Part shown: one piece after another, positions 1 through 25,059 of the stretch | Numbering within the stretch: position 1 is the stretch's first letter | Layout of the letters: the number at the start of each line of letters is the position of its first letter | NCBI GenBank assembly: GCA_024277025.1 | Contig: JAJRWA010000018.1 | Span: 56 to 64,055 of the forward strand | From: Candidatus Krumholzibacteriota bacterium | GTDB taxonomy: Bacteria > Krumholzibacteriota > Krumholzibacteriia > LZORAL124-64-63 | DNA: 64,000 nucleotides | Direction of reading: 5' to 3' | The notes under the pieces: generated by a model | What the model saw: only the letters and a program-made list of their open reading frames with translations | The model's database searches: none | What the model was told of the DNA's origin: nothing | Position numbers and translations under genes: made by a program

Positions 1-1252
1 CGGCTGCATCCACATTCTCGCCTTCGACCTGGGCCAGGCTCTCGGTCAGGCGCACTTCGCAGTCGCTGACCCCCGCCAGTTCACGCAGTGCCCGTTCCAC
101 ACTGGCCGCACAGTGGCTGCAGTTCATGCCCTCGACCGCGAATTCCATTTTCTGCGCCACCGACGCCAAGCCCTGCAAGGTGGTCGTTCCGGTCTCGCAG
201 GCCGTCCCGTCACAGCCGCAATCGTGCTGCCGCGATTTCCACCAACTCCAGATCATGACCACCACCAGCACCACGCCGCTCAACTGGTCGAACCAACCGA
301 CGCCTTCGTGCTGATGCAATGAACCGGAAAGCACCGGCAGGGCCAGCGCCGCCCGCGGCATGAGCCAATCCAGCAGCAGGCCGCCGCCAAAGGCCGACAC
401 CGCCACTGTCAGCAGGTAGATGAGCATCGTGCGCCGGCCCAGCACCCGGCTGATCGTCGTCAGGGTGGCCGCGTTGGTGGCCGGTCCGGCCACCAGGAAG
501 GCCAAAGCCGCACCCGGCGTCGCCCCCAGGGCGATGAACCCCACGGCCAGCGGCACGCTCGCCGTCGCGCACACGTAGATCGGAATACCAACGATCATCA
601 TCAGGGCAATGGACACCGCGCCGGTGCCCAGATACGCGCCCAGGAAATTCTCGGGGATGGCGGCCGCGATAAAGCCCGCAATAAGAATACCGATCAACAA
701 GGCCCGGTTGATATCGCCGGGCAGCGTTTCCGTCGCGTAGACAAAGGCCGCCCGCAGCCGGGCCTGCCAGCCCACCGGGCGGTCGTCCGTGGGGGCACTG
801 GCCAGCCCCCCACCCCCGGCCGCGCTTTGGTCCTCGTCCTTGCCGAAAGCCTGCACCAGGCTGCCGCCCAGCAATCCGGTCAGCAACGCCACGACCGGCC
901 GGAAGATGGCAAACAAGGGCCCCAGCAGGGTCCAGGTGACCATGATCGAATCGACTCCCGTCTGCGGCGTCGACAACAGGAAGGCGGTCGTGGCTGCGCG
1001 GCTCGCGCCGTGCTGCCTGAGGCTGGCCGAGACCGGGATCACGCCGCACGAACACAGCGGCAACGGCACGCCGAAGAGCGAAGCCTTGAAAACCGGCGCC
1101 AGGCCCCGCCCGCCCAGGTGGCGCTCCAGCCAGGCCGGCGAAATGAAGACCGACAGCAGGCCGGCCACCGCAAAGCCCAGCAGCAGGAACGACGCCATCT
1201 GGGTCGTCAGCAGCCAGGTTTCGCGCAGAAAGTGAACAATGAAGTCAGTCAC
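1..1252 (-). CDS. Permease (DUF318/ArsP-like, SO_0444-type metal efflux) fused to C-terminal HMA domain; runs off left edge
   Basis: Not in ORF track. Manual translation from GTG at 1252 gives VTDFIVHFLRETW...LFGVPLPLCSCGVIPV...FLLSTPQTGVDS...GIPIYVCATASVP...AGPATNAAT, then FAVEGMNCSHCAASVERAL (HMA GMxCxxC). Confidence 0.85.
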   Translation of the reverse strand, partial: MTDFIVHFLRETWLLTTQMASFLLLGFAVAGLLSVFISPAWLERHLGGRGLAPVFKASLFGVPLPLCSCGVIPVSASLRQHGASRAATTAFLLSTPQTGVDSIMVTWTLLGPLFAIFRPVVALLTGLLGGSLVQAFGKDEDQSAAGGGGLASAPTDDRPVGWQARLRAAFVYATETLPGDINRALLIGILIAGFIAAAIPENFLGAYLGTGAVSIALMMIVGIPIYVCATASVPLAVGFIALGATPGAALAFLVAGPATNAATLTTISRVLGRRTMLIYLLTVAVSAFGGGLLLDWLMPRAALALPVLSGSLHQHEGVGWFDQLSGVVLVVVMIWSWWKSRQHDCGCDGTACETGTTTLQGLASVAQKMEFAVEGMNCSHCAASVERALRELAGVSDCEVRLTESLAQVEGENVDAA

Positions 1253-4787: not shown

Positions 4788-5237
4788 TCACTGCTCCTCG
4801 ATTCGGTCCAGGGACAACGATTCCGCATCGACGAAGTTGCCCGCCAGCAGGGAGTCCAACAGCTGGCACTCTCCCGCCGAACGCCCGGCCCGGCAGGTGC
4901 CGGCCAGATCCTGCAGAGCCTCCCGCATCCGGGTCAGGGCCGACAGTCGAACCTCGATATCCGCGATCCTGGCCAGTGCGATCTCCTTGATCTCCAGGCA
5001 CGACGCCGCGGCATCGACCCGCAAAAAAAGCAGCTCACGTATGTCGGCCAGGGAGAAACCCAGGGCTTTGGCGTGCCGGATGAAGGCAATCCTGGCCACC
5101 GCCTCGGGCTGGTACATGCGGTAGCCGGACCGGTTGCGGGGCGGCGCGGGAATCAGGGACTCCCGCTCATAGAAACGCAGTGTCTCGATGCCGACGCCCG
5201 TCTGGCGCGACACCTGGCCGATGGTCATGCCCTCCAT
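4788..5237 (-). CDS. MerR-family heavy-metal-responsive regulator
   Basis: MTIGQVS...ETLRFYERESLI...RNRSGYRMY...ALGFSLADIRELL HTH. Three Cys (ASC, GTC-x8-C) in the pattern of the divalent-metal MerR/CadR/PbrR group. Confidence 0.93.
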   Translation of the reverse strand: MEGMTIGQVSRQTGVGIETLRFYERESLIPAPPRNRSGYRMYQPEAVARIAFIRHAKALGFSLADIRELLFLRVDAAASCLEIKEIALARIADIEVRLSALTRMREALQDLAGTCRAGRSAGECQLLDSLLAGNFVDAESLSLDRIEEQ

Positions 5238-5260
5238 GGGTGCTCCTCTGGTTGATTGTC

Positions 5261-5291
5261 AGTATAAGGCTGTACCTTGGTACAGGGTCAA
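5261..5291 (-). promoter_or_regulatory. MerR-type sigma70 promoter/operator with 19-bp spacer
   Basis: Minus strand reads TTGACC-19 bp-TATACT. The spacer holds the perfect dyad CTGTACC-AA-GGTACAG (5270-5285). Confidence 0.92.
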
Positions 5292-5389
5292 GCGCGCGAC
5301 GGGAATTCGGCCCAATTGGCCCGCGGGCGGGAACAATTTCCGAGCATTACGGTTGGGTTTTGTTGGCTCCCCACGAAAGGAAGGTTCTC

Positions 5390-6016
5390 ATGCGCATTGG
5401 GCTACTGATGGCTCTTTTCAGTCTGTTTCCCCTGGCCGGCCTGTCCGCGCCTTCGGCGGCTGCGACGGACGAGGGGGCATTCGCCGAGTTCGTCTCACCC
5501 GCCGACTCCCTGCCTCAGTTGCGGTATTTTGCCGACGGGCTGATCTCACTCAACGATCGCTGTCCCGTGCGCAAGGTGCGCCTGAATCCCCGGATGGGCG
5601 CAGCTTATGTCAATGGCCGACCGGTGGGCTTCTGCTGACGCCCGTGCGCCGCGACCTTCGTGCAAGGTCCTGAAATCTGGCTCACGCAGTTGGGGATCGA
5701 ACTGAACTGTGCGGTTGACCCGGCCCAGCCCGCTATTCTGGACGCCGATCACCGCATTTTCGTCAACTACGAGACCTACTATGTATCCAGCCTGGCAGCC
5801 CGCGACGAGTTTCGGCACGAGCCCTGGCGTTACGCGGGAATCGTGACCGATCCAATCAGCCGCGAGCGGTTCCAACCGACGGAGGCCTCACCGCGGACCC
5901 AGTGCGCGGGACGCGAATTCATCTTCACTTCACAGCGGAACGCAGCGCGTTTTCAGGCCGCGCCTGACCAATACGCCACACCCGTGGTGCCGTATGCCGG
6001 CCACATGGCGCAATAG
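5390..6016 (+). CDS. Candidate secreted selenoprotein with three YHS/TRASH-like repeats (208 aa, Sec83 at TGA 5636-5638)
   Basis: RBS AAGGAAGG, ATG 5390, signal peptide. ORFs 5180..5638 and 5660..6016 are in the same frame, and readthrough gives CPV...GFC-U-RPCAATFVQGPEIW, matching YHS FCCxxCxxxFxxxP. Confidence 0.8.
5636..5669 (+). promoter_or_regulatory. Bacterial SECIS-like element
   Basis: UGA, 14 nt, then stem GACCTT (5653-5658), loop CGTGC, AAGGTC (5664-5669). The loop starts after 20 intervening nt and has G at position 2 followed by U. Confidence 0.65.
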
Positions 6017-6099
6017 CCCCGCAGACGGTTGTTGGTTCACGCGCCCCGACGACAAGGCCCCGGCCCAGACAGGGACCGGGGCCTATTCCGTCAACGGGG
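6017..6099. terminator. Structured spacer or bidirectional terminator between convergent genes
   Basis: Inner hairpin AGGCCCCGG...CCGGGGCCT (6055-6084). Outer pairing CCCCGcaGACGG with CCGTCaaCGGGG. No clear U-tract. Confidence 0.5.
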
Positions 6100-14307: not shown

Positions 14308-15590
14308 GACATCCGCTCCTTCAGGCTCCGGGCGATATCCCCTTCGTGGCGACGCGCGAACTCCGGATCGAAAATGGCTTCCGACAAATGGTCCAGGACG
14401 TACTCCGGCGAACGCTGCTCGGCGATCCAGGCCTCGCAGACCCGCTGCCGCAAGCGGATGCCAAAGGCGTTGAAACCGACCACCCGGCACTCGTCCATCA
14501 CCAGGCGCAACGCATGCCGCCGGTCGGCGTGCTGCCAGTAGAGCGTGCGCCGGCAGTCCGGGTCAGGTTCCTCCAGCGTGCTGGGCACCTGCCCGTAGGT
14601 GTGCCATTCCAGGTCGAATAACTTGGCCGAATTGAACCAGATGCCGCGGTCGTAGCTCACGTCCCGGCCGGCAATGTTCTGACCGACGACTTCGCCGTGC
14701 ATTCTTCCGGTGTACCACAGCTGTTCGATCCGGTTGCGCTCACCCTCCGGCGTGACGATCTCGGCGCAGTCCCCGGCGGCGAACACACCAGCGACCTGGG
14801 TGCGAAATCCGAAATCCACCAGCACGCCGCGCCCGACCGGAATGTCGGATCCCGCCAGGGCCGACAGGTTGGGACTGACGCCTGCGGTCAAGCCCACCAG
14901 CTCACATTCGATACGCTCACCCCCGGCGGTGGTCACGGCACAAACCCGGCCACCGCCGTCGTCGACGATCTCCTTCAGCTCCACGCCCAGGCGCAGATCG
15001 ATCCCGTTCTCACGGATCACCTCACTGACCAGAGTCGATTCCTCCACCGGCAGGATATTGTTCCAGTATGAGCCTTCGCGGGCCAGGATGGTCACCGGCA
15101 CGCCACGCGAATGCAGCATCTCGGCCAACTCGACACCGATTAATCCCCCGCCGACTATGACGGCCCGCCGGATGCGGCCGGAGGCCACCTCCAGCCGCTC
15201 AAGGTCCTGTAGATTGTACATACCCTGCACGCCCGCGAGGTCCTGTCCCGGCCAGCCGAACCTGTTGGGCTGAGAACCGGTGGCCAACAGCAGCCGGTCG
15301 TAGGCCAACGGTTCGCCGTTGTCCAACTGGACCTGCTGCGACGATGTGTCGATCGCGGTCACGCAGGCCCGCCGCAAGTCCAACCGCCGGGTGGCCCAGA
15401 AATCAGGCGGGTAGGGCTGGGTGTCCGCCAGGCTCATGTGTCCCATGTACACGTACATCAGGGCGGTGCGCGAGAAAAAATGGTCAGACTCGGCCGAAAC
15501 CATGGTCACCGTCCAGTCAGGCTGCAGCTTCCGGATGGTCAGGGCGGCAGTCACACCGGTGATGCCGTTGCCCACAATAACTACGCGCAA
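14304..15590 (-). CDS. NAD(P)/FAD-dependent oxidoreductase
   Basis: VIVGNGITG, YDRLLLATGS, IVGGGLIGVE, VFAAGDCAE. Confidence 0.92.
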   Translation of the reverse strand: MRVVIVGNGITGVTAALTIRKLQPDWTVTMVSAESDHFFSRTALMYVYMGHMSLADTQPYPPDFWATRRLDLRRACVTAIDTSSQQVQLDNGEPLAYDRLLLATGSQPNRFGWPGQDLAGVQGMYNLQDLERLEVASGRIRRAVIVGGGLIGVELAEMLHSRGVPVTILAREGSYWNNILPVEESTLVSEVIRENGIDLRLGVELKEIVDDGGGRVCAVTTAGGERIECELVGLTAGVSPNLSALAGSDIPVGRGVLVDFGFRTQVAGVFAAGDCAEIVTPEGERNRIEQLWYTGRMHGEVVGQNIAGRDVSYDRGIWFNSAKLFDLEWHTYGQVPSTLEEPDPDCRRTLYWQHADRRHALRLVMDECRVVGFNAFGIRLRQRVCEAWIAEQRSPEYVLDHLSEAIFDPEFARRHEGDIARSLKERMS

Positions 15591-15892
15591 GATCTTGCTC
15601 CCTGGTTGACACCGCCGGCTGTCCGGTTCATGGCCTGCTCCCCACTATAGATCCATCCGGGCCGGGTCACACCAATTCTCCCGGCAACGGGCGGCCCGGC
15701 CCGCCCGAATCGCCGGCCATGAGTGTCGTGCAACACGAAATTATTACAGAAAAATGATTTTCAGCTACCACCCAGACCCACCCATGTCGTATAATTGGGA
15801 GGCTTCAACAGGAAGCTATATCCTTTATTAGCCCAACTGGCGGCCATCTCGCTTGGCTGGCAGCCGACAAACATCAGCTCAGGAGGACACCA

Positions 15893-16552
15893 ATGAAGCG
15901 CATCGCTATTGCCCTGCTTTTGGTCATGATCGCCACGACCGCCCAAGCGACCACCATCGAGGATATGCAGACCGGTCTGGTGACCATTGGCGACGCCGTC
16001 ACCCTCTCGGGTGTCGTCGTGACCGCGGCCCGTTACAACGGCGTCTACGTCGCCGAGGCTCCCTATGGCACCTACCAGCAGATCTGGGTCTACACCGGCA
16101 CCGACCCCATGGCCGTTCCCGGTGACATGGTCGATGTGGCCGGCACCTATGCCGAATACTACGACCTGTCCGAGGTCGACGGCGGTACCGTCTCGGTGGT
16201 CGGCTCGGCTGTCATTCCGGCTCCGATCGTTGTGCCGGCCGCTACCCTGGTCGCCGACGGCGAACCCTATGAAAGCTGCATCATCTCCATTCCCGACATG
16301 ATGACCGTCACGGCCATCAACAGCTATGGCGAATGGGAAGTCACCGCTCTTGACGGTTCCGTGATGATCTTCGATGACTTCTGGTTCGATGACACGACCG
16401 TTGCGCTGGGAGATTGCTACAGCAACGTCACCGGAGCCTTGACCTACAGCTACGGTGCCTTCAAGGTCGAGCCCTTTGTCGACGGCATCACCGGTTGCCC
16501 GGTTGAGAACGAGTCGGTCAGTTTCGGCACGATGAAGTCCCTGTATCGGTAA
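15893..16552 (+). CDS. Secreted acidic protein (tandem OB-fold-like) with short C-terminal tail motif
   Basis: RBS AGGAGG, signal peptide ending AQA, TIEDMQTG...VTLSGVVVTA...PGDMVDVAGTYAEYYDLSEV...GEPYESCII, ends PVENESVSFGTMKSLYR. Confidence 0.75.
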   Translation: MKRIAIALLLVMIATTAQATTIEDMQTGLVTIGDAVTLSGVVVTAARYNGVYVAEAPYGTYQQIWVYTGTDPMAVPGDMVDVAGTYAEYYDLSEVDGGTVSVVGSAVIPAPIVVPAATLVADGEPYESCIISIPDMMTVTAINSYGEWEVTALDGSVMIFDDFWFDDTTVALGDCYSNVTGALTYSYGAFKVEPFVDGITGCPVENESVSFGTMKSLYR

Positions 16553-16572
16553 TTCCGCACGCGGACGACTGC

Positions 16573-16603
16573 GGGACCCGGCGTCATGCCGGGTCCCTTT
16601 TTT
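16573..16603 (+). terminator. Rho-independent terminator
   Basis: GGGACCCGGC-GTCAT-GCCGGGTCCC followed by TTTTTT. Confidence 0.92.
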
Positions 16604-16664
16604 GCGCACGGTGTGCTAGGCTGAACCGGTGCTCAGCGACAACCTCCCCGCGAAAGGATCCCGA

Positions 16665-17813
16665 TTGACCGCTCCCCTGATCTCACCCGAACAGACCTGG
16701 GCCGTCTGGGCCGTGCTGCTGGGCGCCGCCGCCTTCGGTTTCCTGGCTGAGAACACACGTCCGGGGCGCAAGGTCTCGGGCGCGATCCTGACCATGGGTG
16801 TCACCTTCACTCTGTCCAATGTGGGAGTCATCCCCGCCGACCAGGTGCCGGCCTACGATATCGTCTGGGGATATCTCGTGCCGCTGGCCATCCCCCTGCT
16901 CCTGTTCCGGGCCGATCTGCGCCGCATTCTGCGCGAAGCCGGCCCCACCCTGGTCGCCTTCCTCATCGGCGCCGTGGGCACGATCATCGGGACGATCGTC
17001 GCCTACCAGGTGGTGCCCCTGGGCGAGGAGGGCTGGCGGCTGGCCGCCATCTTCTCGGCCACCTACATCGGCGGCAGCATGAACTACGCGGCGGCCGCCG
17101 AGGCGGTGGGCCTGCACTCGGGCGATCTGCTGAGTGCCGGTGTGGCAGCCGACAATCTGGTGATGGCCCTGTATTTCCTGGTGCTCTTCGCCCTGCCCGG
17201 CATCGCCACCCTGCGCGCCCGCTACCCGAAGCGGCATCACGCCCTGGCCGAGGGGTCGGCCGAACTGGAAGCCAGCCGGCAGGAGGCCGCATCCTTCCCG
17301 CCGGTGGGCACAACGGCCCTGAGCCTGGCGATCGCCCTGGGCCTGTGCGCAGTCGGTTTCGGTTTGGCCGGACTGACCGGCTGGCGGGGCAGCGGTATCC
17401 TGGTGGTCACGGCCCTGACCGTGGTGCTGGCCACTTCCCTGCCGGGGCCGTTCAATCGCCTGGCCGGCGCCGAGGTCATCGGCACCTTCCTGATGCAGAT
17501 CTTCTTCGCGGTGATCGGCGCGAGTGCCAACGTGATGGTCGTCATGCGGATCGGCCCGGTGCTGTTCGTTTTCGCGGCCCTGATCCTGACCATTCACCTG
17601 GCGGTGCTGTTGCTGGGCGGCTGGCTGCTGAAGCTGGATCTGAGCGAGCTGGTCATTGCCTCGAACGCCAACATGGGTGGTCCCACCACGGCGGCGGCCA
17701 TGGCGGTGGCTCGCCGCTGGCAGTCTCTGGTGCTGCCGGCCATCCTCTGCGGGACCCTCGGCTACGCCGTGGCGACGTTCATCGGCGTGGCCCTGGGCCA
17801 CTGGCTGCGCTAG
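16665..17813 (+). CDS. DUF819-family membrane protein
   Basis: LVPLAIPLLLFRADLRRI, ATYIGGSMNY, ASNANMGGPTTAAAMA, GTLGYA. TTG start after AAAGGA. Confidence 0.88.
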   Translation: MTAPLISPEQTWAVWAVLLGAAAFGFLAENTRPGRKVSGAILTMGVTFTLSNVGVIPADQVPAYDIVWGYLVPLAIPLLLFRADLRRILREAGPTLVAFLIGAVGTIIGTIVAYQVVPLGEEGWRLAAIFSATYIGGSMNYAAAAEAVGLHSGDLLSAGVAADNLVMALYFLVLFALPGIATLRARYPKRHHALAEGSAELEASRQEAASFPPVGTTALSLAIALGLCAVGFGLAGLTGWRGSGILVVTALTVVLATSLPGPFNRLAGAEVIGTFLMQIFFAVIGASANVMVVMRIGPVLFVFAALILTIHLAVLLLGGWLLKLDLSELVIASNANMGGPTTAAAMAVARRWQSLVLPAILCGTLGYAVATFIGVALGHWLR

Positions 17814-18032
17814 CCGGCCAACCACCCGCTAGCCAATATTCTCCAATTGCTGGTGAATATTGTTGACCGCTCCACGTAGTTATCATCGACTAAAGCCATA
17901 TCTTGTTGCCTCTGCGAATGTTAAGTCACCGGTACAGTTATTGCGTCACCCGTGGTGGGCCGCCGGCAGGGAGTGGCGGCCGCTTTGATCACGATCCATT
18001 GGCAGGGTGGTTGGCCGAAGGCAGGTGGCAAC

Positions 18033-19091
18033 GTGCGTATTCCCGGTGTTCTGGTTGGCGTCCTGATGGTGTGTGCGACAGTGCGCCCTGTGGCTGCGCT
18101 CACGGTCGCGGAACAGGTGGCGATCAACGCCTACGACCGTGTCTCGAATTCAGTCGTGATGATCGCCTGCCGGGCCAACGACCCCAACAACGGCGCCGAA
18201 TACATTTCGACCGGCAGCGGCTTCGCCCTGGACGACAACTATATCATCACCGACTTCCACGTCATCGAGAATGCCGCCGAGGTCACGGTCATCACCCCGA
18301 CGCAGGAGCCGTACCCAGCCACGGTGGTGGGCACGGCTCCCTATTTCGATGTGGCGCTGCTGAAGCTGCCACGGGGCGCCCCACCCCTGGTCGCGGCTCC
18401 CCTTGGCACGGCGGACAGCTTGCGCCTGGGCCAGGGAATCCTGGCCATCGGCAGTCCGTTTGGCGCGGAGATTTCCGTCACCTCGGGCATTGTCAGTGGC
18501 CTGGGCCGTGAGTTCTCCACCAGCGATATCGAGCGGCGGCTCATCCAGTTCGATGCCGCGATCAATCCGGGACAGAGCGGCGGGCCCCTCGTGGACTCGG
18601 ACGGACGGGTCGTGGGCGTCATCATCGCCAAGGTCAGCGACGGCGAGTCGATGGGGTTCGCCACACCGATTGACCGCATCCGGGCGATGACTCCGGACCT
18701 GATTCGAATGGGGCACCCGTTCCAGGCCGAAATCGGCGTGCAAGGCATTGATGCGACGAGCGAGTTGGATGCCCTGCTGGCCATCGGGGCCCAGTCCGGA
18801 TTCCTGGTCGAGAAGGTGGAACCCAACAGCGCCGCGGCGGAGGCCGGCCTCCAGAGTGGCAGCCGCGTCGTGGAGATGGGCAACTACGTGTACGTCCTGG
18901 GCGGAGATATCATTCTTGCCGTCGATAACGAGCCAATCGCCGGTGGACGAGACCTCGCCCGTATTCTGCTGGCACTGACAGCTGGCCGTCAGGTTCGCCT
19001 GCTGGTGGATCGCGGCGGCGTGCAGCGGCAAGTCACCTTGACCATTCCGGCGATGAGCCACTGGGGAAACACGCCCACCGGCGGCCACTAG
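18033..19091 (+). CDS. HtrA/DegP-like trypsin serine protease with one PDZ domain
   Basis: GSGF, TDFHV (His), DVALLK (Asp), DAAINPGQSGGPL (Ser), PDZ NSAAAEAGL...GDIILAVD. Signal peptide from GTG 18033. Confidence 0.9.
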   Translation: MRIPGVLVGVLMVCATVRPVAALTVAEQVAINAYDRVSNSVVMIACRANDPNNGAEYISTGSGFALDDNYIITDFHVIENAAEVTVITPTQEPYPATVVGTAPYFDVALLKLPRGAPPLVAAPLGTADSLRLGQGILAIGSPFGAEISVTSGIVSGLGREFSTSDIERRLIQFDAAINPGQSGGPLVDSDGRVVGVIIAKVSDGESMGFATPIDRIRAMTPDLIRMGHPFQAEIGVQGIDATSELDALLAIGAQSGFLVEKVEPNSAAAEAGLQSGSRVVEMGNYVYVLGGDIILAVDNEPIAGGRDLARILLALTAGRQVRLLVDRGGVQRQVTLTIPAMSHWGNTPTGGH

Positions 19092-19199
19092 GTCGTGGTG
19101 GCGGCACCGCGTCTGCGCGGCCCCGGCACCCCAAGGAGGAGACGGTTGTCTTCCCAGATCGCGAGTGAAAATGTCCGGGCGGAGGTCGTGCGCAAGGGG

Positions 19200-20732
19200 A
19201 TGCCCCTTGGCTGGCGTCTGGCCCTGTACACAGCCGTCATCGTGGCCCTGGTCATGGGCGCGGTCACCGCCTTTCAGGAAACGAAGAACACCACCTACGA
19301 GCGTCAACAGTTGATCGGAGGCCTGCGGTCATCCCTCCTGCCCCTGGCGGCCCGGCTTGAGGCGGCCGGGAGCATCCGGGAGATGGAACAGGATCTGCAG
19401 TTGTTTCACCAGTCGTACCGGCGGGCCGGGATCGAGAGCCGCCACCTCACCCTCACCGCCCCGGACGGTGGCGTGCTGTTCTCGACCCTGCCGTCCGAAC
19501 CGCAGGTTGCAGCGTACATGCGTGTGGATCTGCCGATCACCAACAGTCAGTTGGGCCCCGGCGCCGCAGAACTGTCCATCTACCAGGACCAATCAGCCTG
19601 GCAGGCCCACATCCACAGCCGTTGGCGGCGCGGTCTCTTTCATTTCGTGGCGACTCTGGTGTCGATCCTGCTGGCGTTGCAGATCGCCATCCGGGTCCTG
19701 GTCACCGCACCGCTGGAGCGTCTGCTCGAAGGAATCCGCAAGACGGAAATGGGCTATTGGGGCGAAGTCGCCGATCCCGGCGGCGCCTGGGAGATCCGCT
19801 GGGTGGTTTGGCGGTTCCAGAACATGGGCCGTGAACTTGAACGCACAGTCCAGCACCTGCTGGCGGCCGAGAAGCGCGCCCGGGGGGCGGCCGCCGCCGA
19901 CCGGATGCCGCTCAGGCAGGCCGCCGCCGAGTCGCCCGACAGCCGGACGCCAACCGCTACGGGACGGCTTGACCCGCCCACCTATCCGGCCAGCCGGCTA
20001 CTGGCGGTCTGCTCCCGTCTTGAGGGTGTCCATGAGCCGTCATCCACTGATCGCCATCTGGCCCAGGCCGCGGTTGGCCGCCATGCGTTTGCGGCCGAGG
20101 CCCTGGGTGACATGACTCTCAAGTGCCGGTTGGAGAACGCGAGCCTCAGGATCCTGGAACCCACGGCCTATCACGACCTGGCCCAGCGGGTCGAGGCCTA
20201 CACCAGCAGCCGCCGCAACTCTCTGCAGCATTGCCAGGAGCGCCTGCGGACTGTGCTTGAGCAGAACATGGTTCCGGTCGTGGAACTGCATGCCCGCAAC
20301 AAGCACATCGCCGGCATCCACGCCAAAATGAGGAGCAAGGGACTGGAGTTCACGCAGATCCACGACCTGTTCGCCCTGCGCGTCGTCGTGCCCAGCGAAT
20401 CCGACTGCTACTGGGCACTCGGTCTGGTCCACGAGACGTTCGCACCGGTGGTCGGCCGCTTCAAGGACTACATCGCGGCCCCCAAACCGAATGGCTACCG
20501 CAGCCTCCACACCTGTGTCCGGGTCGAGGACACACTCGTGGTTGAGATCCAGATCCGTTCCCTGGCCATGCACCGCAGCGCGGAAAACGGAGCAACTTCG
20601 CACTTGAACTACAAGCAGGAAAACCGGTCAATGACGATGGCGAAACGGAGGAAAGGTTTGTCCGCAATCAGTATCGCCGCCACGGCGAAGAAAATGTTCG
20701 ACAAGTCACATCGTACACAGGAAACGGGGTAA
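19200..20732 (+). CDS. Two-TM, HAMP-containing RelA/SpoT-type (p)ppGpp synthetase
   Basis: TM1, about 120-aa extracytoplasmic region, TM2, HAMP-like TAPLERLLEGI...WEIRWVVWRFQNMGREL, then ARNKH...K...IHDLFALRV...RFKDYI...KPNGYRSLHT...EIQIRS...AENG...HLNYK. Start may be GTG 19188. Confidence 0.88.
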   Translation: MPLGWRLALYTAVIVALVMGAVTAFQETKNTTYERQQLIGGLRSSLLPLAARLEAAGSIREMEQDLQLFHQSYRRAGIESRHLTLTAPDGGVLFSTLPSEPQVAAYMRVDLPITNSQLGPGAAELSIYQDQSAWQAHIHSRWRRGLFHFVATLVSILLALQIAIRVLVTAPLERLLEGIRKTEMGYWGEVADPGGAWEIRWVVWRFQNMGRELERTVQHLLAAEKRARGAAAADRMPLRQAAAESPDSRTPTATGRLDPPTYPASRLLAVCSRLEGVHEPSSTDRHLAQAAVGRHAFAAEALGDMTLKCRLENASLRILEPTAYHDLAQRVEAYTSSRRNSLQHCQERLRTVLEQNMVPVVELHARNKHIAGIHAKMRSKGLEFTQIHDLFALRVVVPSESDCYWALGLVHETFAPVVGRFKDYIAAPKPNGYRSLHTCVRVEDTLVVEIQIRSLAMHRSAENGATSHLNYKQENRSMTMAKRRKGLSAISIAATAKKMFDKSHRTQETG

Positions 20733-20735
20733 GTC

Positions 20736-21353
20736 ATGTCTGCCAGAAACTGGAAACCTATTGTCCTGGCTCTGTTGGTCCTGCTGGGCGCGAACCAGGC
20801 ACTCGCCCTTGACCTTGGCGGTCACGATCGGGATGGGTTCGTGTTCGGCCTGGTCGTCGGCCATGGCTGGAATGCAATCCACACCGCCGACATCAACGGC
20901 GAGTCCCAGGGCACCAACCACATGGCCGCTTTCAACGGCGCCCTCAAGTTCGGCTGGGCCTGGAACGACGCACTTGTCGGCTTTATCGGCATGTCCGGCT
21001 GGAGCCGTGGTGCGAATCAGGACACCGCCCCGGCCTCGGCCACCAACCTGAATCTACTCGCCGAATTGTACTACTTTCCCGGCGGGCGCGGATTCTGGCT
21101 GAAGGGCGGTGCGGGCGCCGGCTCCCTTGACTACTTTTTGAATGCAGCCGAGCCGGGAGGCAACATCGTTTTCAAGGAGAGCGGATACGCCCTCACCTTC
21201 GGCACCGGCTTCGAGGTCAGGCTGCGGGGGCGGTACGGCGTGGGCCTGAGCTACGACTACACGCGGCTCGACATCAACGACTTTGGCAATATCACCGGGG
21301 CCAGGACCGGCAATCAGGTCATCGCCGTCAGTATCCTGATGTATGGCTCGTAG
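20736..21353 (+). CDS. Putative outer-membrane beta-barrel protein
   Basis: Signal peptide (ALA), HDRDGFVFGL, amphipathic strands GFWLKGGAGAG, FGTGFEVR, GLSYDY. Starts 3 nt after the upstream stop. Confidence 0.7.
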   Translation: MSARNWKPIVLALLVLLGANQALALDLGGHDRDGFVFGLVVGHGWNAIHTADINGESQGTNHMAAFNGALKFGWAWNDALVGFIGMSGWSRGANQDTAPASATNLNLLAELYYFPGGRGFWLKGGAGAGSLDYFLNAAEPGGNIVFKESGYALTFGTGFEVRLRGRYGVGLSYDYTRLDINDFGNITGARTGNQVIAVSILMYGS

Positions 21354-21398
21354 AGCCTACCCGGCGCGACCGCCGGCGAACCCGCGAGCGAGGTAAAA

Positions 21399-21989
21399 AT
21401 GAAGACGGTTCTGCTGATACTGACCGGAGTGCTGATCGTCGGCATCGGGTTGGTTCTTTTTTTCATGCGCGGCGCCCTGGCCACCGGTGTGCAGCATCCG
21501 CTAGCCGACAGTCAGGGTGTGCTGTGGGACCAGGAGTCCCGCACCCTGGCGGGTGAGGCCACAACCCTGGCCCCCTGGCGAGGGCAGGTCGCGCTGGTGG
21601 TCAACGTGGCCAGCAAGTGTGGGCTGACGCCCCAGTACGCCGGCCTCGAAAGCCTCTATACCGAACTGCGGGACCGCGGGTTCGTGATCCTGGCCTTTCC
21701 CAGCAACGATTTCATGGGACAGGAGCCGGGCACACCGGATGAGATCCGCACCTTCTGCACGGACAATTTCCAGGTGGATTTCCCCCTGTTCGCCAAGGTG
21801 CGGGTCAAGGGTGACCGGATGTCGGGCGTCTACGGGTTCCTGACCGCGGGCGGACTCGAACCGCCAAGCTGGAATTTCACCAAATACCTCGTTGGCCGCG
21901 ACGGCCGAGTCATCGCCCGCTACGCGCCGCGGACCAGGCCGGATGATCCGCACCTGCGGCAGGCGATCCTTGCCGCCCTGGGTGAGTGA
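21399..21989 (+). CDS. Glutathione peroxidase family (Cys type), N-terminal membrane anchor
   Basis: VVNVASKCGLTPQY, FPSNDFMGQEPG, WNFTKYLV. The catalytic codon is TGT. Confidence 0.93.
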   Translation: MKTVLLILTGVLIVGIGLVLFFMRGALATGVQHPLADSQGVLWDQESRTLAGEATTLAPWRGQVALVVNVASKCGLTPQYAGLESLYTELRDRGFVILAFPSNDFMGQEPGTPDEIRTFCTDNFQVDFPLFAKVRVKGDRMSGVYGFLTAGGLEPPSWNFTKYLVGRDGRVIARYAPRTRPDDPHLRQAILAALGE

Positions 21990-22128
21990 CGGCCTTCCCC
22001 AAAAATGACCCGGTGGAAATCCTTTTCCACCGGGTCACATGGCATTCCTTTGCCCTTGTTGTCGCTCCGTCGAAACGGATCTGCCGGCGCGTTCAATCAC
22101 GCCACCGGCGGGCTAAAAACCAGGCCGC

Positions 22129-25059
22129 TCAGGAACAGCCGGTCGTCCCCCCGCAGTTGTGGCACTTGTAGCACGAGCCGCTGCGGGTGGTCACTGAACC
22201 ACACTCCGGACACGGCGGGCTGTCCTGCTGCCGCTGGATCGTGCTCTTGTCCTCGGTTCTGTCGCCATAGGTGATCCGGCTGACCGTTTCACCATTCATC
22301 TGCATGGCCATCTCTTCCTTGCCGACCCTGGCCTTGGCCTGTTTGAGGGCCTCGGCCTCGCGGGTATCATCCTCGCCGTCGGGTACGGTACCATCGGCCT
22401 CGCCGGCATGCTCGCCGAACTTCAGATCCATCCAGCGGAAGATGTAGTCCATGACCGACTTGGCAATGGGGATCTCCGCGTTGCTGGTGAACCCGCTGGG
22501 CTCGAAGCGCGCGTGGCTGAACTTGTTGATCAGCACCTTCAACGGCACGCCGTACTGCAGCATGATCGAAACGCTGGTGGCGAAGCTGTCCATCAGTCCG
22601 CTGACAACCGAGCCTTCCTTGGCCATGGAGATGAACATCTCGCCCGGCTTGCCGTTGGGATACATGCCGATCGTCAGGTAGCCCTCGTGGCCCGCGATGG
22701 AGAACTTGTGGGTGATGGCCGTGCGTTCGTCCGGCAGGCGCACCCGCTTGGGCTTGGGCGGTGCCTGGTGGTCATCGGCAGCCACCGCATCGTCCTGCTT
22801 GTTGCTGGTGTTCAGCGGCTGCAGGCGCTTGGAGTTGTCCCGATAGATGGCCACGGCCTTGAGGCCCATCTTCCAGGCTTCCAGGTAGGTTTGCATGATC
22901 TCGTCCACGGTCGCCTCTTCGGGCAGGTTGACCGTCTTGGAGATGGCCCCGGACAGGAAAGGCTGCACCGCGCTCATCATGCGCAAGTGGCCCATGTAGT
23001 CGATGGACCGCACGCCGTTGGCCGGCCGGAAGGCGCAGTCGAAGACCGCCAGGTGTTCGTCCTTCAGGTGCGGCGCGCCCTCGATGGTCTCTTCACGGCC
23101 GATGTACTCGGTGATCGCTTCGACTTCCTCGTCCGTGTAGCCGAGTTTCTCCAGCGCATCGGGCACCGAATTGTTGACGATCTTCATCAGCCCGCCATCG
23201 ACCAGTTTCTTGTACTTGACCAGGGCGATGTCCGGCTCGACGCCGGTGGTGTCGCAGTCCATCATGAAACCGATGGTGCCGGTCGGCGCCAGGACCGTGA
23301 CCTGGGCGTTGCGGTAGCCGTAGTCGTGGCCCAGGGCGTAGGCCTCGCGCCAGACGGTCTCCGCCGCCTCGAGCAGGTCCGTGGGCACCCGGTTGGCGTT
23401 GATCTTGTTGACCGCCGCCCGGTGCATGCGCACCACTTCCAGCATGGGCTCGCGGTTCTCGGCGTAACCCTCGAAGGGACCGATCTGGCTGGCGATCTCG
23501 GCGCTCGTCAGATAGGCCTGGCCGCACATCAGGGCGGTGATCGCCGCAGCGTAGTCCCGGCCCGTGTTGCTGTCGTAGGGCAGGCTGCGATTCATCAGCA
23601 GGGCGCCGAGGTTCGCGTAGCCCAGGCCCAGAGGCCGGAACTTGTGGCTGTTGTCCTCGATCTCCTCACGGGGATAACTGCTGTTGCCGACCAGGATCTC
23701 CATGGCCATGATCATCAGCCGCGAAACATAGCGGAACGCATCGATGTCGAACTCGCCGTCCTCGCGCCGGAATTTCATCAGATTCAGCGAAGCCAGATTG
23801 CAGGCCGAGTTGCTCAGGAACATATACTCGCTGCAGGGATTCGAGGCGTGGATGCGATCAGTCGTCTTGCAGGTGTGCCAGTCGTTGATCGTGGTGTCGA
23901 ACTGCATGCCCGGATCGCCGCAAACGTGGGTGCCCTCGGCGATCTTGCGCATCAGGTCGCGGGCCCGGTAGGTGTCCATGGGCCGGCCATCGGTGATCGC
24001 GTGGGTGGTCCACTCGCCGTCTTCCTCGACCGCCCGCATGAACTCGTTGGTCACCCGCACCGAGTTGTTGCTGTTCTGGAAGAAGATCGAGCTGTAGGCC
24101 TCGCCGCCGAAGCTGCCGTCATAGCCCTGGTCCATCAGGGCCCAGGCCTTCTTCTCTTCATTGACCTTGCAGTCGATGAATTCCTCGATGTCCGGATGAT
24201 CGGCGTTCAGAATGACCATCTTGGCCGCGCGGCGCGTCTTGCCGCCGCTCTTGATCACGCCGGCGAAAGCATCAAAGCCGCGCATGAAGCTGACCGGACC
24301 GCTGGCCTGGCCGCCCGCCGAAAGGCTCTCGCGACTGGAGCGCAAAGTCGACAGGTTGCTGCCGGTGCCGCTGCCGAACTTGAACAGCAGACCCTCGGTC
24401 TTCGCCAGATCCAGGATGCTGGCCATGCTGTCTTCGACCGAGTTGATGAAACAGGCCGAGCACTGGGGGCGCTTTTCGACGCCGACATTGAACCAAACCG
24501 GCGAGTTGAAGGCCGCCAGCTGGTTGACCAGGATGTGCTTCAGTTCGTTGCGGCATATCTCTGCATCCACGGTGGTGGCGAAGTACTCATCCTTCAGGCC
24601 CCAGTCCGTGATCGTATCGGCCACCCGATCGATCAACTGGCGCACACTGTGCTCGCGTTCGGGCGTGCCCTGGCCGCCACGGAAATACTTGCTGACCACG
24701 ACATTGGTGGCCATCTGGGTCCAGTTGGCCGGAATCTCGCAGTTGTCCTGGCGGAAGATCGTCTCACCCTTGTCGCTGGTGATCGTGGCCGAGCGCATCT
24801 CCCACTCGATCTCGTCATACGGGTGCACGCCCTCGGTCGTGTAGCGCCGCTCGGCCGTCAGGCCGCGGCCCTTGATGCGGGCCTGGTCCCCATCGACTTC
24901 CGCGGCAGTGTCCAACATCTCTTCGGTTGCGGTCTCGAGACGGGCGGCCGGTCGCGTGCCCGTCTCGGGACCGTCCCCGAACAGGACGCCGCCGGTATTT
25001 GCCTGCAGGTCCTGGTTGGGTTGGTGTTTTCTGGTCTCAGCCTTGATCCGATCCGCCAT
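22129..25059 (-). CDS. nrdJ: Vitamin B12-dependent (class II) ribonucleotide reductase with TSCPD region and C-terminal Cys cluster
   Basis: FNSPVWFN, QCSACFI, GGKTRRAAKM, SNPCSEY, ACNLASLN, APTGTI, GAISKTVN, C-terminal CPECG...CHNCG. Confidence 0.96.
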   Translation of the reverse strand: MADRIKAETRKHQPNQDLQANTGGVLFGDGPETGTRPAARLETATEEMLDTAAEVDGDQARIKGRGLTAERRYTTEGVHPYDEIEWEMRSATITSDKGETIFRQDNCEIPANWTQMATNVVVSKYFRGGQGTPEREHSVRQLIDRVADTITDWGLKDEYFATTVDAEICRNELKHILVNQLAAFNSPVWFNVGVEKRPQCSACFINSVEDSMASILDLAKTEGLLFKFGSGTGSNLSTLRSSRESLSAGGQASGPVSFMRGFDAFAGVIKSGGKTRRAAKMVILNADHPDIEEFIDCKVNEEKKAWALMDQGYDGSFGGEAYSSIFFQNSNNSVRVTNEFMRAVEEDGEWTTHAITDGRPMDTYRARDLMRKIAEGTHVCGDPGMQFDTTINDWHTCKTTDRIHASNPCSEYMFLSNSACNLASLNLMKFRREDGEFDIDAFRYVSRLMIMAMEILVGNSSYPREEIEDNSHKFRPLGLGYANLGALLMNRSLPYDSNTGRDYAAAITALMCGQAYLTSAEIASQIGPFEGYAENREPMLEVVRMHRAAVNKINANRVPTDLLEAAETVWREAYALGHDYGYRNAQVTVLAPTGTIGFMMDCDTTGVEPDIALVKYKKLVDGGLMKIVNNSVPDALEKLGYTDEEVEAITEYIGREETIEGAPHLKDEHLAVFDCAFRPANGVRSIDYMGHLRMMSAVQPFLSGAISKTVNLPEEATVDEIMQTYLEAWKMGLKAVAIYRDNSKRLQPLNTSNKQDDAVAADDHQAPPKPKRVRLPDERTAITHKFSIAGHEGYLTIGMYPNGKPGEMFISMAKEGSVVSGLMDSFATSVSIMLQYGVPLKVLINKFSHARFEPSGFTSNAEIPIAKSVMDYIFRWMDLKFGEHAGEADGTVPDGEDDTREAEALKQAKARVGKEEMAMQMNGETVSRITYGDRTEDKSTIQRQQDSPPCPECGSVTTRSGSCYKCHNCGGTTGCS

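Follow-up and report, generated by a model that had tools for sequence, protein, structure and literature searches.

Introduction

To our knowledge, the known (p)ppGpp synthetases sense the cell interior, that is ribosomes with uncharged tRNA, protein partners or, in the case of small synthetases, transcriptional induction. Among the RelA/SpoT homologs (RSHs) the long bifunctional Rel enzymes (S. aureus, B. subtilis, M. tuberculosis, T. thermophilus, RelSeq) have, besides their synthetase, an HD core, TGS, AH/RIS and ACT, and the small alarmone synthetases RelP/RelQ (YwaC/YjbM) and RelV are small soluble proteins with a synthetase only and no hydrolase. Here we describe a gene for a putative membrane receptor-type RSH synthetase in a Candidatus Krumholzibacteriota bacterium (GenBank assembly GCA_024277025.1, contig JAJRWA010000018.1, positions 56 to 64,055; this whole stretch of 64,000 nucleotides is called the window). 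With the long Rel enzymes its product shares the synthetase and the helices preceding it, at 30-35% identity, with the same fold and the RxKD motif, whereas the HD core, TGS, AH/RIS and ACT are absent and it has instead a module that consists of a transmembrane (TM) helix, a sensor domain, a second TM helix and a predicted HAMP segment. Like the small synthetases it has no hydrolase, but it is a protein of 528 amino acids with two TM segments, it keeps Rel-type helices before the domain and its similarity to them is far weaker.

Receptors with a comparable build are known with other outputs. In HAMP-GGDEF diguanylate cyclases, HAMP adenylyl cyclases (mycobacterial Rv3645) and LapD a periplasmic sensor, two TM helices and HAMP precede a nucleotide-messenger enzyme. 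Their receptor logic would, by analogy, be common with that of the window protein, although the output of the latter is an RSH synthetase, i.e. a nucleotide pyrophosphokinase and not a cyclase, and although a continuous signalling helix leads to the output of the cyclases where the window protein has a variable linker. Sensor kinases of the WalK/CusS/PhoQ type resemble it in the N-terminal 235 residues, which superpose on the WalK model and the CusS sensor domain, but they have HisKA, HATPase_c and a partner response regulator, and the window protein is without all three. We know of no HAMP-type receptor with RSH synthetase output.

Loss and fusion of domains have precedents among RSHs. Plant CRSH is a Ca2+-activated RSH. 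According to the consulted portions of two papers, long RSHs can lose domains secondarily, e.g. RickRel/RickSpo (PMC7229694), and RelZ of M. smegmatis is an RNase HII-synthetase fusion (PMC7591505). None of these was found to combine an extracytoplasmic domain and HAMP in a transmembrane receptor. By full-text search of the published literature no description of an RSH with TM helices or HAMP was found. In the available part of one RSH classification paper (PMC3153485) the words "transmembrane" and "HAMP" have 0 occurrences, and in that of another (PMC7229694) "transmembrane" has 0 occurrences; the family may sit under a subfamily name in Datasets S1/S2 of the latter or in figures of either paper. 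As far as we can tell, the family is present in databases but not in the literature, which agrees with a first-pass annotation of the window, made from its letters alone, that had known of no characterised example. Automatic labels do exist for seven members, which the JGI annotation calls HAMP domain-containing and three of them also ppGpp synthetase, and a 148-member cluster in the ESM Atlas is named "hypothetical protein". At least one signal-transduction census, in the portion consulted, counts RelA_SpoT as a non-signalling domain (PMC2808908). Since members are almost all "hypothetical" and the census treats their output domain in this way, such proteins appear to have been systematically overlooked.

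Results

Residues are numbered throughout from ATG 19200, i.e. for the 510-residue version of the protein, and positions are those of the window (Table 1). The catalytic half is recognised by the RelA_SpoT model PF04607, which matches residues 366-475 with 125.5 bits (cut-off 27) and is matched by all 75 members of the family alignment (A1). The catalytic and substrate-binding motifs of RSHs are RxK..K, D..R, RxKD or ExDD, GYxSxH, ExQIR and H..YK. All motifs from which the first-pass annotation had read an intact synthetase are present (RNK..K, IHDLFALR, RFKDY, GYRSLH, EIQIR and AENG..H..YK), and each motif residue can be aligned with its counterpart in the Rel enzymes of S. aureus and B. subtilis. 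The following do not vary in any of the 75 members: R366, K368, K376, D389, R394, R420-F-K-D-Y424, N431, Y433, H437, E449, Q451, R453, H468 and Y471. The motif is carried in its RxKD form, which is the hallmark of bifunctional Rel/SpoT enzymes and had been noticed from the letters. RXKD in place of EXDD is also reported, in a passage of PMC6416229, for the SpoT of acidithiobacilli. For HD, HD_4, TGS and ACT no Pfam match at E <= 1 was found in the window protein, in keeping with what had been read from the translation, and the protein stops 35 residues past the synthetase domain.

The origin of this half can be judged from several comparisons. TIGR00691, the model of long RSHs, aligns residues 296-483 to its positions 142-328 with 197.2 bits (curated cut-off 499.2), and the alignment with B. 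subtilis Rel starts at Rel residue 154; the small alarmone synthetase model NF053588 reaches 38.4 bits with a cut-off of 320. In a phmmer search against solved structures the long Rel enzymes were matched with E 3.6e-34 to 1.9e-28 and the small synthetases with E 5e-9 to 7e-6, and in Foldseek the Rel structures came out at E 1e-15 to 5e-12 (probability 1.00, 30-35% identity) and RelP/RelQ at E 6e-8 and weaker. Because the alignments begin at TIGR00691 position 142 and at Rel residue 154, the stretch AEALG..LENASLRILEP..Y is the counterpart of the helices after the HD core, a likeness that had been pointed out before and on which both alignments agree. Taken together, the sequence comparisons and models show that the catalytic half is a trimmed long Rel enzyme and not a descendant of small synthetases. 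The HD catalytic core and the whole C-terminal regulatory region (TGS, AH/RIS, ACT) were lost and the last HD helices kept. It had been proposed that a membrane sensor replaced the hydrolase domain of a Rel enzyme; the Rel descent and the genuine fusion hold, but the proposal has to be amended in that the HD core alone was lost from the hydrolase part, its last helices staying in place, and in that the C-terminal region is also gone. Besides the gene described here, the source genome holds one complete long RSH with HD_4, RelA_SpoT, TGS, AH/RIS and ACT.

The input half was examined by hydropathy and structure prediction. Kyte-Doolittle windows gave two hydrophobic segments, residues 7-25 and 150-168. 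Most aligned members (67 of 75) share this count of exactly two, their segments lying 138 residues apart on average; one segment was seen in four members and three segments in another four. The AlphaFold2 (AF2) model of the full protein with the family alignment has a predicted local distance difference test (pLDDT) value of 90.4 and the separate model of residues 1-235 one of 91.0. From the N-terminus onward the full-length model shows TM1 as one long helix, then a further helix with four strands (59-130) and an unbroken helix 132-183 that comprises TM2 and the first helix of HAMP. A connector of 13 residues leads to a helix at 197-233, and an unstructured stretch 234-263 is followed by four helices (264-355) and an alpha/beta domain. 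A complex prediction for two copies of residues 130-510 had a score of 0.01 and a mark of 0.42, which speaks neither for nor against a dimer. The periplasmic alpha/beta domain, about 125 residues in size, is predicted with pLDDT of about 85-97. The best PDB match of residues 1-235 in Foldseek was the integrative TM-sensor-TM-HAMP model of WalK (E 2.5e-6, TMq 0.70), with the silver-bound sensor domain of CusS in the next place (E 2e-3 to 1.4e-2, 10-11% identity). ESM feature look-alikes are HAMP-linked sensor modules of the cyclase kind described above, with scores of 0.87-0.88, which we treat as leads only. Given the AF2 model and the matches to WalK and CusS, the input half has the build of a sensor kinase, and the earlier reading of TM1, extracytoplasmic region and TM2 is thereby borne out.

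No significant Pfam family was found for the sensor domain in the window protein or the aligned members, and a weak Pfam CusS match (0.017) occurs in one of the 75. A CusS-type metal sensor was considered and rejected; the fold likeness is weak and the sole supporting context is a fragment of an RND (resistance-nodulation-division) transporter beside one homolog. At that locus (L084, G029:C68, 33-830) the homolog is directly preceded by a gene for the C-terminal portion of a transporter of the AcrB/RND type (PF00873), on a contig of only 2.7 kb which leaves the context incomplete. A protein search with residues 1-235 returned 8 proteins, all of them family members, and no other output domain at that sensitivity; others may exist.

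The segment that follows TM2 deserves separate attention. The HAMP signature consists of a Pro early in the first helix (AS1), a Gly at the junction of AS1 and connector, and a Glu at the start of the second helix (AS2). P171, G185, G195, A196 and E198 are invariant in the aligned family, and P171, G185 and E198 are the residues of this signature. In HAMP kinases the G of GD is the counterpart of G185 and the E of DE[IV]G that of E198; P171 has a P opposite it in the consensus of four kinases and a G in the single kinase compared. The segment lies directly after TM2, with a helix to residue 183, coil at 184-196 and a helix from 197 in both AF2 models. When related genomes were searched by tblastn with residues 1-235, four other proteins were matched over residues about 141-229. 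All four are histidine kinases and the matched stretch is their Pfam HAMP (E 1e-12 to 1e-16). Alignment of the family profile with the four-kinase alignment by hhalign gave 94.9% probability and E 4.3e-8 over 139 columns, and with one kinase 59% and E 9e-5; the GYWG....GAWEIRW of the family aligns with GDW.....GRDE(I/V)G of the kinases. From these profiles and models we conclude that the segment is most plausibly a true but divergent, tryptophan-rich HAMP. The window protein is outside the long-RSH and small-synthetase classes, inside the RelA_SpoT domain family, and is placed with HAMP at the level of profile and structure.

The same architecture is present in many other sequences. Of 8000 proteins scored in a word-indexed search, 291 reached E <= 0.001. 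Among the 120 matches listed, 106 (P0002-P0107, 105 besides the window's own) carry PF04607 only, at E <= 1.2e-60, and from P0108 onward the listed matches are long RSHs with E >= 2.9e-37. In an exhaustive HMMER search of cluster representatives we observed the same step between the family and the long RSHs, at E of about 1e-39 against 1e-38; family members among the best 150 rows do not exceed 557 amino acids, so no larger fused form occurs there. The N-terminal profile co-occurs in 189 of 316 sequences having the synthetase region and matches none of the proteins of at least 560 amino acids in this set. A FastTree phylogeny (LG+gamma) was built from 260 sequences, of which 150 are membrane forms, 87 are long RSHs, 22 are short and one is a small-synthetase outgroup. 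The 150 membrane forms together with 7 short fragments form one clade with support 1.0 and a stem of 0.69 substitutions per site; support for its sister group is 0.33. One clade of shared architecture indicates that the fusion of TM segments, HAMP and synthetase arose once from an ancestor resembling a long RSH and is no assembly artefact. An assembly chimera, which the first-pass annotation had named as what would overturn its reading, is thus contradicted by abundant homologs with both halves.

Judged by source names, the family spans at least three phyla. Names of the members found in the search include Chromatiales, Burkholderiales, Rubrivivax, Leptothrix, Holophagae and Acidobacteria, and one locus (L001) is from a Thermoanaerobaculia assembly. 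This locus was the only family member among 80 kept loci of a genome-contig scan with the full alignment, in which two thirds of the patterns came from the synthetase and long RSHs dominated; a metagenome scan was swamped by long RSHs in the same way and gave one family locus (L089). In the window's phylum (single class, 208 genomes) the gene is present in four genomes, G000, G156, G164 and G029, and the copies of the phylum fall within one small clade of 8 with support 0.976. A second class, that of G208, has the gene in 25 of 301 sampled genomes, and in 21 of these the match extends from query residue 1-4 as far as residue 468 or beyond. Among the individual loci, L140 (G434:C1, about 4998-6023) has two in-frame TGA codons and L133 (G286:C6) has one; these may be pseudogenes or sequencing errors.

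The gene itself lies in one open frame which spans 19095-20732 on the plus strand and can be translated from GTG 19095 (545 amino acids), TTG 19146 (528) or ATG 19200 (510). The frame of the 510-residue protein proposed before is real, but its start is probably 54 nt upstream, at TTG 19146, which is preceded by a Shine-Dalgarno-like sequence. The 528-residue version is gene call P0002 in a public collection. A motif PPxRG(L/M)xLG before TM1 is kept among homologs, and at that place the window protein has RKGMPLG. As this conserved motif precedes TM1, ATG 19200 is probably internal, and the protein most likely has a short basic cytoplasmic N-terminus. GC content at third codon positions (GC3) of the gene is 0.80, similar to the adjoining genes. 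The source assembly has 3.8 Mb in 276 contigs, with completeness of 90.7% and contamination of 3.85%. In a search of sequencing runs a single run was listed as containing it, at a small share (0.06), and no RNA run was listed.

Table 1. Features of the RSH receptor gene and its surroundings in the window (residues counted from ATG 19200).
Feature	Residues	Position	Strand	Basis
Terminator-like hairpin, 11 pairs and T run		16573-16597	+	Hairpin scan; 5 such sites, 4.1 expected in shuffles
DUF819 membrane protein gene		16629-17813	+	Family search
HtrA/DegS-like serine protease gene, one PDZ		17952-19091	+	Trypsin_2 and PDZ; TIGR02037 E 3e-65, below its cut-off
Shine-Dalgarno-like AAGGAGG, 6-nt spacer to TTG 19146		19133-19139	+	Direct sequence reading
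Membrane receptor-type RSH synthetase gene (putative)		19146-20732	+	Open reading frame; 528-residue database gene call P0002; GC3
TM1	7-25	19218-19274	+	Hydropathy peak 2.28; part of long helix in AF2 models
Extracytoplasmic sensor domain, two helices and four strands, PDC/CusS-like (predicted)	26-149	19275-19646	+	AF2, Foldseek
TM2	150-168	19647-19703	+	Hydropathy peak 2.38; conserved across family
Divergent HAMP (predicted): AS1 to 183, connector 184-196, AS2 and helical extension 197-233		19704-19898	+	Invariant columns, AF2, hhalign
Variable linker	234-263	19899-19988	+	pLDDT 52-56, no secondary structure; unconserved gap-rich columns
Rel-type helical region, counterpart of last HD-domain helices and of helices leading into the synthetase domain of long RSHs	264-365	19989-20294	+	TIGR00691, B. 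subtilis Rel, model
RelA_SpoT synthetase domain	366-475	20295-20624	+	Pfam, invariant residues, Foldseek
Basic C-terminal tail and stop, family-variable	476-510	20625-20732	+	Alignment columns 620-700; helix pLDDT 58-81
Small outer-membrane beta-barrel gene, start 4 nt past RSH stop		20736-21353	+	OMP_b-brl 24.9 bits, just under cut-off 28.7
Glutathione peroxidase gene		21399-21989	+	Family search

On its 5' side the RSH gene adjoins a protease gene, which ends 4 nt ahead of GTG 19095 and 55 nt ahead of TTG 19146, and on its 3' side a gene for a small outer-membrane protein (OMP). The hairpin listed in Table 1 may tentatively be taken to mark the upstream end of a unit made of DUF819, protease, RSH, OMP and glutathione peroxidase genes; a promoter scan of 15500-22200 showed no promoter-like site on the plus strand. 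Upstream of the unit, at 15893-16552 (plus strand), lies a gene for a 219-residue protein with a signal-peptide-like N-terminus and a weak match to the N-part of ExeM/NucH nucleases (E 4e-10, far below cut-off), followed by this hairpin, which is the strongest terminator-like one of the region. On the other side the cluster adjoins a 976-residue frame at 22129-25059 (minus strand), which from its translation alone we take to be ribonucleotide reductase.

Within the phylum parts of this arrangement recur. In G156 a 48%-identical protease gene is directly 5' of the RSH gene and a cyclophilin gene 3' of it. The cluster of the closest relative, G164, looks decayed (L094, G164:C62, 3276-5596, minus strand): the protease is reduced to 57 residues, and the RSH gene is without residues 87-131 and has a frame change, with a 383-residue frame (P0004) beginning just before TM2 as its remnant. 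The barrel gene is intact in the same position, with 67% identity and 29.7 bits for OMP_b-brl. In the second class neither protease nor barrel gene adjoins the RSH gene at any of 20 loci, no other neighbour family is shared except among close relatives, and the flanking genes that were scanned encode unrelated enzymes and transporters; at L140 a protease domain is weakly matched about 2.5 kb from the RSH gene. Overall, the protease recurs in four loci (one of them at this distance of about 2.5 kb) and the OMP in two. A conserved adjacent antitoxin or immunity gene was not found in 23 loci. Since no neighbour family recurs across the second-class loci, the protein looks like a self-contained one-component unit, and the link to protease and barrel is, judged from gene order, probably a lineage-specific hint and not a trait of the family. 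At one locus of the second class only (L128, G308:C19, 6539-7942) the gene overlapping the RSH stop encodes a fusion of a Ser/Thr protein kinase and a receiver, a candidate local partner.

Discussion

The interpretation which we prefer, and whose whole chain we consider somewhat better than an even bet, is that the window protein is a one-component transmembrane receptor with alarmone synthesis as its output. Both termini would be cytoplasmic, with the basic N-terminus followed by TM1, the periplasmic sensor, TM2 and the cytoplasmic HAMP. The enzyme would use ATP to pyrophosphorylate GTP or GDP at the 3'-OH and so make (p)ppGpp. A periplasmic cue would change the conformation of a TM2/HAMP dimer, and this change would alter the arrangement or accessibility of two catalytic modules and in this way the rate of synthesis; changed spacing or mutual occlusion of two tethered modules is the simplest idea for the coupling. 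As the protein has no hydrolase, removal of the alarmone would presumably fall to the bifunctional long RSH of the genome. The messenger of the stringent response could thus be fed from the envelope, without ribosome-sensing domains. With a protease gene 5' and a barrel gene 3', an envelope or protein-folding cue is a reasonable guess, though only a guess. We give roughly equal odds for and against a broader proposition, that this is the founding example of a widespread overlooked receptor class which raises (p)ppGpp directly and independently of ribosomes and amino-acid starvation, the cue here being perhaps envelope or OMP stress.

Several observations weigh against this interpretation. The Pfam HAMP model (PF00672) has no match in the window protein at E <= 1, and at E <= 0.1 it fails on 72 of the 75 members, the best of the three matches being 0.013; the HAMP-like segment of the first-pass annotation is upheld by the profile-profile match, the invariant residues and the predicted fold, but not by this model. 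An unconserved stretch of about 30 amino acids, predicted with low confidence, joins HAMP to the catalytic module. In most HAMP receptors the signal is carried by a continuous helix. With this variable linker lying in between, a rigid helical relay is not evident in the window protein. In the sensor domain the window protein deviates from the moderately conserved periplasmic consensus, with R81 for H, A87 for D and G145 for W. The protease/OMP neighbourhood is confined to the window's phylum. Furthermore, few genomes have the gene. None was found in the five further genomes of the genus, which are 65-96% complete, just 2 of the 90 others in the window's family carry it, and two copies elsewhere look decayed. 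The RSH receptor gene is widespread and patchy and, being rare and decayed in some relatives, it is also dispensable.

Some of these observations could also be explained if the N-terminal module served only to tether to the membrane, or to dimerise, a weak (p)ppGpp synthetase that is always active and would then be controlled by expression or turnover, e.g. by the upstream HtrA-like protease. The flexible unconserved linker between HAMP and the catalytic part, the 383-residue frame of G164, which keeps TM2, HAMP and synthetase without TM1 and most of the sensor, and the protease gene 5' in the window's lineage are all in its favour. A mere anchor is however hard to square with a periplasmic domain and a HAMP, including its invariant residues, that are kept across phyla, and the N-terminal module is present in 150 of 150 non-redundant full-coverage members, so we consider this explanation unlikely. 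The enzyme could also act as toxic small alarmone synthetases do, with a different product or target, for example by making (p)ppApp or by pyrophosphorylating tRNA or some other acceptor. According to the portions consulted of three sources (PMC7229694, PMC12691689, 10.1101/2021.04.30.441581), the RSH fold does such chemistries in other subfamilies. The domain described here is nevertheless nearest to bifunctional Rel in both sequence and fold, with motifs including RFKDY and GYRSLH kept, its catalytic part is predicted to be cytoplasmic with no secretion signal before it, and the 23 loci are without the conserved antitoxin or immunity neighbour; another product or target seems to us quite improbable.

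That the gene is no functional unit at all, being an assembly chimera, a pseudogene or the gene of an inactive pseudo-enzyme, could be suspected from the fragmentation (276 contigs) and contamination of the source assembly and from the broken copies in two relatives (G164 and G434). The frame in the window is however intact and has GC3 like its neighbours, the catalytic residues are invariant, and the same architecture is found in about 150 non-redundant sequences of independent assemblies, which leaves this explanation with very little probability.

If the one-component receptor is real, the environment or the envelope would have direct access to the stringent response, which could account for the rise of alarmone without starvation in some bacteria. 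Alarmone synthesis would join kinases, cyclases and chemoreceptors as an output of HAMP receptors, and for HAMP research this would be a new kind of output, an enzyme on a flexible linker. For RSH research it would offer a natural minimal synthetase module without the autoinhibitory hydrolase core or the ribosome-binding region. Function is what we infer here, and the finding would surprise specialists of the stringent response.

The distribution of RSH synthetases in the window's phylum is itself uneven. In six genomes of its families f3, f4 and f7 (G026, G027, G031, G032, G036 and G037, 96-99% complete) no RelA_SpoT domain was found, and whole families of the phylum may be without RSH synthetases. 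In the window's own family the domain is present in 24 of 24 searched genomes.

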